From Bacillota bacterium (GTDB taxonomy: Bacteria > Bacillota > PH28-bin88), in NCBI GenBank assembly GCA_040757295.1, contig JBFLXH010000002.1, forward strand, positions 49,579 to 113,578: DNA of 64,000 bases, written 5' to 3'. Each line of letters begins with the position of its first letter. Position 1 is the stretch's first letter. The notes beneath the pieces were generated by a model. The model saw nothing but the letters and a program-made list of their open reading frames with translations, was not told where the DNA came from and searched no databases. Shown here one piece after another: positions 53,960-58,930 of the stretch. The position numbers and the translations under genes are program-made.

Positions 53960-55987
<2,028 letters not shown>

Positions 55988-56136
55988 TATTCAGCTGCAA
56001 TATGCAAAGCTACTGGCAGCCGCCGCAGCCGAAGTTTAAAAGAGGCTACCTCGCCTTGTATTCCAAGCTGGCAGCTTCGGCCGCCGAAGGAGCAATAATC
56101 AAGGGCTAAGCCTATCGAAGAGAGAAATCGGCATTA

Positions 56137-56168
56137 GGTACCAGTTTTGCAAACTGGTATCTTTTTTT
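56137..56168 (+). terminator. Intrinsic terminator after ligA
   Basis: GGTACCAGTTT-TGC-AAACTGGTATC followed by T7. Confidence 0.8.
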
Positions 56169-56171
56169 CGG

Positions 56172-56218
56172 TTGACAAGCCCTGATCCCTAAGCTAACAT
56201 TAAAACAGTTATTTGAAT
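56172..56218 (+). promoter_or_regulatory. cad promoter plus CadC-type operator
   Basis: TTGACA-17 nt-TAACAT; ATTAAAA-CAGTTA-TTTGAAT (56199-56218) resembles the ATTCAAA-N6-TTTGAAT CadC box. Confidence 0.7.
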
Positions 56219-56240
56219 ATTTTAATGAGGGGTGGGGCCG

Positions 56241-56615
56241 GTGAAAGAATGTCACCATGACGGCGGCGATGACCTTTGCCAGGTTTTTGAATACAATAAG
56301 GAAAAGGTCGAACGGCTGAAAGCTGAAGTTGAGTCGACTGAAGGTTTGGCCCAATTATTTAAGGCCCTGGCCGATGACACCAGGTTAAAAATAGTCTATG
56401 CCCTTTCCAGGGAGGAACTTTGTGTCTGTGATGTGGCCACAATCATCGGTTGTTCGGTGCAGACCGCGTCTCACCACTTAAGGCTTCTGCGGAATCTGGG
56501 CCTGGCCTCTTGCCGGAAGGATGGCAAACTGGTCCACTATTCTCTGAGGAGCCCGGCTATTGCTATGTTGCTTAACAAAGTCGCAACAGAATTCAAGGAG
56601 GATAATGTCAGGTGA
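56241..56615 (+). CDS. cadC: ArsR/SmtB metal-sensing repressor (CadC-like)
   Basis: FKALADDTRLKI, ELCVCDVA, SHHLRLL; N-terminal C/H ligands. Confidence 0.9.
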   Translation: MKECHHDGGDDLCQVFEYNKEKVERLKAEVESTEGLAQLFKALADDTRLKIVYALSREELCVCDVATIIGCSVQTASHHLRLLRNLGLASCRKDGKLVHYSLRSPAIAMLLNKVATEFKEDNVR

Positions 56616-58807
56616 AAGAAATAAGCAAAGGCATGGAGCCCGGGGCGGTGGTTTTCCATTTGACGGGCCTGACCTGAATAGACTGTGCTGAAAAGGTTGC
56701 CAAACGAGTGGCAACTCTCCCTGGCGTGACCAGGGCAGAACTAAACTTTGGGGCTGCCAAACTGAACGTTGCCGGCTCTTTTGACCCCGGCGCGGTAATT
56801 AAGGAAGCTGCTGCAGGGGGTCTGGGGGCCAGGCCGGCAGGAGAGGAAAATAATTCGTCCACCAGCTTGTGGCTCAAATACAGCCGGGTGATTATCCCCT
56901 CCCTTTCGGGCCTTTTAATTATTACTGCCTGGTTTTTCAAATGGTGGGGCTATGCCTCCCCGTTATTTCAAGCCGTATTCCTGGCGGCTATGGTTATTGG
57001 TGGTTATACCACCGGTCGAAAAGCTCTTTACAACCTATCTAAACTGCGTTTTGACATGAATGTGCTGATGGTGGTGGCTGTGGCCGGGGCGGTACTGCTT
57101 GGCGAGTGGACCGAAGGGGCCGTGGTAGCTTTCCTGTTTTCCGTCTCCGCCAGCCTCGAGGCCTATACCGTCAACAAGGCCCGGCAGGCCATCAAATCAC
57201 TAATGGACCTGGCTCCGAAAGAGGCCTTAGTCCGCCGTGGCGGCCAGCTGGTAATCCTGCCTGTGGAAGAAATACTGGTAGGAGATGTTATCCTGATCAA
57301 GCCAGGGGAGAAGATTCCTGTAGATGGAAAGGTCATTCTGGGTTATTCGGCAGTAAACCAGGCACCAATCACAGGAGAATCCGTCCCAGTGGAAAAAGGC
57401 CCGGAAGATCAGGTCTTTGCTGGAACAATCAACCACCACGGCCTGCTGGAAGTGGAAACAACCAAACTGGTGCAGGACACCACCTTGTCCAGGATTATCC
57501 ACATGGTGGAAGAGGCCCAGGCCAAAAAGGCTCCTACGCAGGCTTTTGTGGAGCGGTTTGCAGCTGTTTATACCCCAATTGTGCTGGTATTGGCAGCCGG
57601 AATAGTGCTGGTGCCGCCAATCTTCTTTAACCAGCCCTGGGCACCCTGGATCTACCGGGGACTGGCCCTGCTGGTGGTCTCCTGCCCCTGTGCCCTGGTG
57701 GTTTCAACTCCCGTGGCAATGGTCTCGGCCATCGGCAATGCGGCCCGCCACGGAGTACTGATTAAGGGCGGGGCCTACTTGGAACAGGCCGGTACCTTAA
57801 CAGCGGTTGCTTTTGACAAGACCGGCACCCTAACCAAGGGTAAGCCCCTTGTCACAGACCTGATTCCTGCCCCAGGTGTGGCCTCGGAAAAAGTTCTTAC
57901 CCTGGCTGCCAGCCTGGAGCAATTATCCCAGCACCCCTTGGCCAGGGCAGTCATGGCCAAAGCCGAGACCTGCCAAGTACAACCCTTGGCCGTGGATGAG
58001 TTAACCGATATCCCCGGGCAGGGCCTGGTTGGGCAAATTGAGGGTGTGGAGTACCGCTTAGGCAGCCCCTCTTCCCTGATCCAAGCAGGGGTAAAGCTGG
58101 ATGCCTTTAATGAGCAGCTTAATACCTTAATGGGAGGCGGTAAGACTGTCATGGTCTTAAGCGCCGCTGACCGGGTTCTTGGTATCATTGGCCTGGCTGA
58201 TGAAATGCGGCCTGGAGTCGGCAAAGTGGTTAAGAGCCTTAAAGATGCCGGGATAAAAACCACCATCATGTTGACCGGTGACCACCAGGCAACTGCCGAG
58301 GCCATCGCCAGCCAGACGGGAGTAAATGAGTTTATGGCTGGCCTATTGCCGGAAGATAAGGCTAATGCTGTCCATTCCCTGAGGCAGAAATACGGCAAAG
58401 TAGCAATGGTAGGAGATGGGATTAACGATACCCCGGCCATGGCGGCCGCTTCCCTGGGGATTGCCATGGGAGGATCGGGGGCAGACACGGCTCTGGAAAC
58501 AGCGGATATCGTCTTAATGGCCGATGACCTGTCCAAACTGCCCTTTACCATTAAATTGAGCAGGGCCGCTTTAGGGGTCATCAAGCAGAACATTGCTTTA
58601 GCCCTGGGGCTTAAGTTCCTGGCTGTAGCATTTGCCATTTTTGGATGGTTAACCCTATGGCTGGCGATTATGGCAGACATGGGGGCGTCCTTGTTAGTTA
58701 CCTTAAACGGTATCCGGCTCCTGAGAATGGGAGCCGAACCGGAGCAAGAAACCTGCTGTGGAGGTCATACCCACGCACCGGTACCAAAATGTGCCCGTAC
58801 CGGCTAA
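56612..58807 (+). CDS. cadA: P1B-2 heavy-metal (Zn/Cd/Pb) ATPase; in-frame TGA at 56675-56677 in the HMA motif (candidate selenocysteine)
   Basis: GTG overlapping the cadC stop after AAGGAGG; GLT*IDC HMA motif; TGES, SCPCAL, DKTGT, HP, GDGIND, ADMG. Confidence 0.88.
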
Positions 58808-58930
58808 ATTAAATTCTTCTGCCTTTACCTTGGCTTTGTCTATGTTTTCAAAAGGGGGGATGGACTGTACTCGGTTAAAATTACGGTATAAAATATATGT
58901 TACTTAATTAGAAGATTGGCAGGACTGGGT

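Follow-up and report, generated by a model that had tools for sequence, protein, structure and literature searches.

A metal efflux ATPase gene of a Bacillota bacterium very likely carries a selenocysteine codon in its metal-binding domain

Introduction

P1B-type metal pumps predicted to contain selenocysteine (Sec) form a long-known family. They were first reported among two Sec-containing transporters in the genome paper of Carboxydothermus hydrogenoformans (PMC1287953) and appear in a table of PMC1976440, while PMC5029168 gives the family two numbers, 25 and 32, which we take to be organisms and genes. Table 1 of a review from 2026 (PMC13188914) lists the family as TIGR01525, with the motif UxxC and the representative ABB15669.1; in its passage on the family, such transporters are "predicted to contain Sec residues" and their roles "require further investigation". 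Here we describe a further member, a CadA/ZntA-like pump gene in a stretch of 64,000 nucleotides (nt), hereafter the window, from a Bacillota bacterium (assembly GCA_040757295.1, contig JBFLXH010000002.1, positions 49,579 to 113,578). Within its N-terminal heavy-metal-associated (HMA) domain lies an in-frame TGA that in all likelihood encodes Sec.

Compared by description, the window pump shows no difference in kind from the known Sec pumps. It is a P1B ATPase at the level of TIGR01525, its Sec is the first residue of a UxxC motif in an N-terminal HMA domain, a stem-loop follows directly after the UGA, and the host belongs to the anaerobic Bacillota and holds the full Sec machinery. Its particular features are the motif G-L-T-U-I-D-C, with threonine in place of the usual aspartate before Sec, and a hairpin that is shortened and re-registered. 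The gene is thus an ordinary further example of a family that has been catalogued since 2005, and for this reason current views are not overturned.

Two other groups offer points of comparison. With the P1B-2 ATPases ZntA and CadA (ZntA structures 4umv and 4umw; cadmium ATPase 7qbz), the pump shares one N-terminal HMA domain and the motifs CPC, DKTGT and GDGIND; unlike them, it has Sec for the first HMA cysteine (Cys) and a Cys/His-rich C-terminal tail, ETCCGGHTHAPVPKC. Other Sec-containing metal binders of the HMA type, such as the 'UxxU metal-binding (seleno)protein' family of NCBIfam (NF041115), likewise have Sec in the metal loop of an HMA domain with ferredoxin-like fold. In contrast to those proteins, which are small and stand-alone or differently fused, the window domain is fused to a pump, and its match to the model is weak (23.7 bits versus a cut-off of 95). 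An initial annotation of the window, made from the letters alone, had described UxxC HMA domains as computationally predicted and little studied, which agrees with the entries for this family in PMC1287953, PMC5029168 and PMC13188914. Our literature search, with supplements outside its scope, turned up no experiments on P1B pumps or HMA domains that contain Sec.

The pump gene and its metal-binding domain

The full-length gene occupies positions 56612..58807 of the window (all window features given here lie on the + strand) and comprises 731 codons, with Sec at codon 22. Its GTG start (56612-56614) stands 10 nt 3' of a Shine-Dalgarno sequence AAGGAGG (56595..56601), read directly from the DNA, and overlaps the TGA stop of the preceding cadC-like gene (56613-56615) as GTGA. 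Translation from 56612 gives VKEISKGMEPGAVVFHLTGLT-TGA-IDCAEKV..., the residues after the TGA being IDCAEKVAKRVATLPGV. The only internal TGA in this frame is that at 56675-56677, beyond which the reading stays open to the stop at 58805-58807; the 709 codons other than those up to the TGA are open and conserved. A mechanical list of open reading frames opens the pump only at GTG 56708 (699 residues), a call that is too short. The GTG start, the AAGGAGG, the GTGA overlap, the TGA and the hairpin at 56695-56716 discussed below all lie exactly where the initial annotation had put them.

Read through the TGA, the protein scores 615.9 bits with the heavy-metal P-type ATPase model TIGR01525 (cut-off 346.25) and 540.1 bits with the cadmium-family subfamily model TIGR01512 (cut-off 313.5). 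The equivalog models of Escherichia coli ZntA are matched below their cut-offs (NF033775, 541.5 versus 1240; NF008262, PRK11033, 623 versus 1005), so the pump is no equivalog of that protein. It nevertheless aligns with the ZntA structure 4umv over residues 15-705 (E 3.1e-142), and CPC, DKTGT, GDGIND and the lysine and aspartate of the last two helices are conserved in this alignment. Family models and aligned residues together suggest a specificity of the Zn/Cd/Pb type. On this evidence and on what follows, we hold it highly probable that 56612-58807 is an intact gene for a Sec-containing, CadA/ZntA-like P1B-type metal efflux ATPase.

The N-terminal HMA domain, with a beta-alpha-beta-beta-alpha-beta order of elements, was located at 56642..56836 by PF00403, with one TGA inside the match. 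An AlphaFold2 model of the N-terminal 72 residues, built on an alignment of 31 orthologous domains and beginning at 56627, reached a mean pLDDT of 87.5 and shows the elements E6-13, H18-29, E34-40, E45-50, H54-63 and E67-70 (fragment numbering). In Foldseek comparisons it superimposes on solved HMA domains with TM-scores of 0.77-0.83, among them the N-terminal domain of ZntA (1mwy) and that of CadA (2aj0). Strand beta1 of the model is encoded 5' of the TGA, and for that reason the segment upstream of the codon is needed for the fold; the TGA residue itself sits in the beta1-alpha1 loop. Alignment with 4umv places it on the first Cys of the ZntA motif GMDCAAC, and we read the codon 56675..56677, from this position and from the orthologue pairing described below, as Sec (U22) at the first Cys position of G-L-T-U-I-D-C.

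At the opposite end of the protein, the tail encoded at 58750-58804 is rich in Cys and His (ETCCGGHTHAPVPKCARTG) and is conserved in a gene remnant of a same-genus genome described below. It may form a second cytoplasmic metal site.

Selenocysteine and cysteine at the same position

Among 401 sampled genomes of the phylum, 95 hold an orthologue at E<=1e-150. We fetched 83 orthologue loci; the approximately 15 matches left unfetched are mostly partial or start after residue 75. At the residue of the window's TGA, 23 of the 83 loci have TGA, 54 have Cys and six show no recognisable motif. The orthologues align with the window protein from residue 3 on, and all 23 Sec-type genes encode a single HMA domain, with the motifs GLTU[IM]DC, GITULDC, G[IV]DULDC, G[LM]DUPDC, GVDUPEC and GCSUQSC. 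Besides the window, the TGA loci include 22 other genomes from several families. Of 11 related loci in named public records, six have TGA; two cultured carriers, Thermosediminibacter litoriperuensis DSM 16647 and Desulfofundulus thermobenzoicus DSM 14055, are among these six. Because it recurs in so many orthologues, the coincidence of TGA with Cys is far beyond chance. The initial annotation had set the TGA on the first Cys of the HMA motif; the ZntA alignment and the 54 Cys-type orthologues bear this out.

The codon was also looked up in independent assemblies. Contigs from four sequencing runs of four studies cover 56675-56677 and all have TGA unchanged. Judged by run labels, the organism's habitat is represented by groundwater and biofilm metagenomes. 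Two of these runs may be the window's own source, and contigs drop rare variants, so that they report the presence of TGA only. Across all four, differences occur only at 56390 and 57033, and these in a single run. A sequencing error or a nonsense mutation confined to one strain, which the initial annotation had named as outcomes that would undo its reading (TGC or TGT in reads, or a TGA unique to this strain), was rejected in view of the TGA shared with relatives together with these contigs.

Flags of '1 TGA' or '1 TAG' that some orthologues drew in the survey were considered as Sec or pyrrolysine sites; for L035 and L025 this was discarded, as the flags mark terminal stops.

The survey also brought up HMA domains outside the single-domain pattern. 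A related pump in the record of a Syntrophomonas sp. metagenome-assembled genome (L146:1441-4020) has three near-identical tandem HMA repeats, GITCMDC, GITUMDC and GITUMDC, that is Cys, Sec and Sec, with two in-frame TGAs in one open frame; the repeats look like the outcome of a duplication of the Sec-HMA unit. At two other loci, L085:36-173 (-) and L086:2680-2885 (+), a further HMA domain with an in-frame TGA at the corresponding motif position (GMT-TGA-ASC) lies just 3' of a Sec-type pump gene (genomes G193 and G225). By its sequence this domain seems to belong to a CopA-like multi-HMA protein, in which case each of the two genomes would have a second Sec-HMA gene.

RNA structure after the UGA

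Bacterial Sec insertion sequence (SECIS) elements place their apical loop roughly 16-37 nt after the UGA. In the window, a SECIS-like hairpin at 56695..56716 starts 18 nt after the UGA and can be written GGTTGCCA / AACGAG / TGGCAACT, with an 8-bp stem GGUUGCCA/UGGCAACU. The UGA-to-loop gap of 25 nt given in the initial annotation was recovered, and the hairpin forms in the minimum-energy fold of 56670-56740, which at -24.1 kcal/mol has a z-score of -2.34 against dinucleotide shuffles (5 of 200 as good). Directly 3' of it, at 56719..56735, lies a second hairpin, CCCUGG-CGUGA-CCAGGG.

The family as a whole gives a strong signal for such structures. For the 60 nt after the codon, fold energies average -22.7 kcal/mol in the 23 Sec loci and -14.8 kcal/mol in 68 Cys loci (Mann-Whitney p 9e-6), at equal G+C (0.54). 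Measured against synonymous recodings that preserve the protein, the mean z-score is -2.07 for Sec and -0.10 for Cys loci (p 2e-7), and values below -2 occur in 16 of the 23 Sec loci versus 8 of the 68 Cys loci. Within the window's clade of 11 sequences, the two-helix structure is 90.4% paired, compared with 40-61% for slid controls, and four pairs have changed on both sides, for example GCC/GGC to GCU/AGC at third positions of Ala codons. The second of these helices, conserved in the Sec clade, has 92.4% of cells paired and one pair changed on both sides. In a second clade the hairpin is a different one, and six of its pairs have changed in a compensatory way. Three Cys-type genes are nested in the Sec clade; two of them (L107 and L110) have lost the first hairpin, and the third (L061) retains it almost intact. 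At the family level, these results show selection for RNA structure 3' of the UGA. In another Sec clade, the position of the second hairpin is taken by a different one.

In the window itself, the hairpin is shifted in register relative to that of the clade. Its 3' arm GUGGCAACU (codons V-A-T) corresponds by homology to that of the relatives' hairpin. The ancestral 5' arm GCNGCCA (codons A-A-K) has been lost, and GGUUGCC (codons K-V-A) pairs in its place as a new arm, so that the window stem occupies the place of the relatives' upper stem and loop. A comparison within the genome is available in flpD, a further selenoprotein gene introduced below. Taken alone, the window hairpin folds with -10.5 kcal/mol at +21..+42 and the flpD hairpin with -10.1 kcal/mol at +16..+34; the two are similar in size and stability, the former starting 5 nt further from its UGA. 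Both contain UGCCA/UGGCA, at different stem heights, and we draw no conclusion from this.

Selenocysteine machinery

Whether the genome holds the genes for Sec synthesis and insertion had been proposed as a check in the initial annotation, and all were found. The genes for selA (637.7 bits), selB (366.5 bits) and tRNA-Sec (75.7 bits) are adjacent on contig C15 of the same genome, and selD (390 bits) lies on contig C67 (G000:C67:7477-8400); all four score above the curated cut-offs. The selD gene has an in-frame TGA of its own (TAAG-TGA-AAKVGPG), and a gene of the FlpD/MvhD type (G000:C20:42765-43133, - strand) carries VAG-TGA-HPGDC and is a further selenoprotein gene. The main formate dehydrogenase alpha (FdhA-type) gene, on contig C22, has no internal stop. 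In the phylum, selB is present in all 23 genomes with a Sec-type pump.

A route that leaves selenium aside was considered as well. Cys can enter at Sec codons when thiophosphate replaces selenophosphate, and the UGA might be read as Cys on tRNA(Sec) under selenium shortage or by near-cognate Trp or Cys suppression, in which case the protein would be made, mostly without selenium. We assign this a very small probability: the conserved hairpins of Sec-type genes, together with the loss of the first hairpin in L107 and L110 though not in L061, the remaining Cys-type gene nested among them, indicate a SelB-dependent mechanism, and an intact selD that is itself a selenoprotein gene argues for selenophosphate synthesis.

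Evolution of the Sec/Cys state and gene loss

Trees of 80 orthologues were computed from the sequence outside the HMA part, after the truncated rows L061, L090 and L126 had been dropped. They require seven (FastTree) or six (IQ-TREE, quick mode) changes between Sec and Cys. A single origin of all Sec-type pumps was rejected by an approximately unbiased (AU) test, with a log-likelihood 647 lower and p 6e-43; in this test the group is defined by the trait itself, and the long row L094 is unstably placed. The window gene is placed together with Sec-type genes from other families, apart from the Cys-type genes that G002 and G003 of its own family carry; support for this grouping is only 88 and is not starred.

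Two relatives document loss. In a same-genus genome (G001), only the last 138 or so pump codons are left (L155:2017-2433), at 83% nucleotide identity to window positions 58393-58809. This remnant includes the Cys/His-rich tail and has unrelated neighbours, and since nothing in G001 matches the gene's 5' portion, the genome offers no hairpin for a comparison within the genus; judged from the sequence, the pump gene is truncated or lost in this genome. The second case is L061 (G340:C1:276372-278480), which has Cys at the site (GITCLDC) and the clade hairpin with one mismatch, and in which a further in-frame TGA ends the read-through at 349 residues. Its genome, 96% complete, is one of three genomes with a Cys-type orthologue that gave no match to selB. 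L061 looks like a recent Sec-to-Cys conversion that followed loss of the Sec trait, and the gene is perhaps decaying.

Such cases lend some weight to the idea of a pseudogene in this strain, with the window's TGA as a nonsense mutation or an assembly error: the remnant in G001 implies that the pump can be lost, and L061, a close relative, may be decaying. This idea is nevertheless close to refuted, and we give it hardly any probability, given the identical TGA in the contigs of the four runs, its presence at this residue in 22 further genomes, which span several families and all have selB, and the open and conserved frame beyond the codon. None of the three refuting outcomes named in the initial annotation was observed: the Sec machinery is present, the four-run contigs have TGA, and the TGA is shared with 22 other genomes of the phylum and with named strains, Cys standing in most of the other orthologues.

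Translation at the UGA

In the mechanism that we propose, translation would begin at GTG 56612, coupled to the repressor gene through the GTGA overlap. The hairpin at 56695-56716 would recruit SelB together with Sec-tRNA(Sec), and Sec would be inserted at the UGA without termination. In the product, Sec would replace the first thiol of the HMA CxxC site, giving U22-x-x-C25, and the selenolate and thiolate of this pair would capture the metal before its export through the CPC site in the membrane. By general chemistry, the gain over sulfur would lie in a lower pKa and a softer ligand for Cd, Pb, Hg and Zn. Both the insertion of Sec in vivo at 56675-56677 and a benefit of selenium over sulfur are presumed here. 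If selenium were lacking, translation would end after 21 residues; GTG 56708 could conceivably serve as a fallback start, a possibility that is poorly supported.

Several observations weigh against this reading of the gene. The HMA match is borderline (25.0 bits versus a cut-off of 24.8). The assembly consists of 106 contigs, at 90.5% completeness and 3% contamination, and the Sec genes stand on contigs other than that of the pump. The presence of selB hardly discriminates: because genomes with a Cys-type orthologue mostly carry it too (29 of 32, versus 23 of 23), its distribution is consistent with the reading and uninformative as a marker of the Sec type, for which it was rejected. Since G001 keeps just a 3' remnant, the pump is dispensable in the lineage. 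The weakest part of the argument is the hairpin itself. Against protein-preserving synonymous recodings, it has a z-score of -1.16 and 29 of 200 recodings fold as well, which is not significant for this sequence alone. Compared with the nearest relatives, its 5' arm lies about 8 nt further downstream, its stem is shorter, and its loop AACGAG departs from their G-first loop (GAAAA). Given both the test and these differences, its recognition by SelB is something we can only infer.

These features of the hairpin, weaker and re-registered as it is, are also what could be said for a different outcome, in which the UGA mainly terminates and the product is a truncated pump, initiated or reinitiated at GTG 56708 and devoid of a folded metal-binding domain, Sec insertion being minor or absent, for instance because the shortened hairpin is a decaying SECIS. 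GTG 56708 does open a frame of 699 residues, and ZntA without its N-terminal domain still transports. Against this stand several facts about the site. There is no Shine-Dalgarno-like sequence close to 56708, the only candidate being GAAAAGG 13 nt upstream. The valine codon at this position is not GTG in three of the 11 clade members (L057, L059 and L060), so this GTG has not been maintained as a start across the clade. Upstream of the TGA, 21 codons still encode a typical beta1 strand and align with orthologues from residue 3, and the hairpin equals that of flpD in the same genome in size and stability. We therefore regard predominant termination as improbable and retain read-through with Sec as the preferred account of the gene.

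Operon context

The gene upstream of the pump, at 56232..56615, encodes a cadC-like metalloregulator of the ArsR/SmtB type with 127 residues (NF033788, 90 bits versus a cut-off of 55). Besides its ELCVCD motif, it has a Cys/His-rich N-terminal arm (KECHHDGGDDLC, window 56232-56290), which we take to resemble the thiolate-rich Cd- and Pb-sensing sites of CadC-type repressors. The regulator and pump genes are probably co-transcribed and translationally coupled.

The unit is flanked by a ligA-like gene (53963-55987) and an open reading frame for a RecD-like helicase. A terminator-like hairpin at 56136..56162, a 12-pair stem followed by TTTTTTT that was also found as an inverted repeat, closes the ligA-like gene and marks the 5' limit of the cadC-cadA unit. 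Upstream of cadC, a sigma-70-like promoter candidate, TTGACA-17-TAACAT (56172..56200), matches the consensus at 10 of 12 positions, the best in the region, its assignment resting on this consensus match only. The inverted repeat CATTAAAA-N14-TTTTAATG at 56198..56227, with 8-nt arms that are 100% complementary, overlaps the -10 hexamer; its position alone makes it a candidate operator for the ArsR/CadC-type repressor.

Implications

The case illustrates how such genes escape notice. Automated annotation begins the gene too late, at 56708, or breaks it at the UGA, and thereby loses the metal-binding domain and hides a selenoprotein; the same is expected for the 22 other genomes. It also draws attention to Sec in the role of a metal ligand and not of a redox catalyst, an idea for which our literature search found no experimental test in this family and for which the two cultured carriers would allow one.

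Whether the exchange of Cys for Sec brings an advantage is a more speculative matter. We entertain, as a possibility that is tentative and somewhat doubtful, that the swap is adaptive and recurrent, and that anaerobic bacteria of the subsurface would, through the selenolate, capture soft metals measurably better, be it in affinity, pH range or transfer rate. In favour of this are the Sec/Cys state that has changed at least six times in the phylum, the clade-specific and unrelated hairpins in the codons of helix alpha1, the re-registration of the window hairpin onto the same 3' arm, and the one relative with an apparently duplicated Sec-HMA unit. If this were true, synthesis of the pump would be gated by the supply of selenium, in line with the coupling of metal resistance to selenium that the initial annotation had presumed. 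The repeated switches between Sec and Cys, together with the turnover of in-frame hairpins, form a compact natural series on the origin and decay of SECIS elements within a coding sequence.

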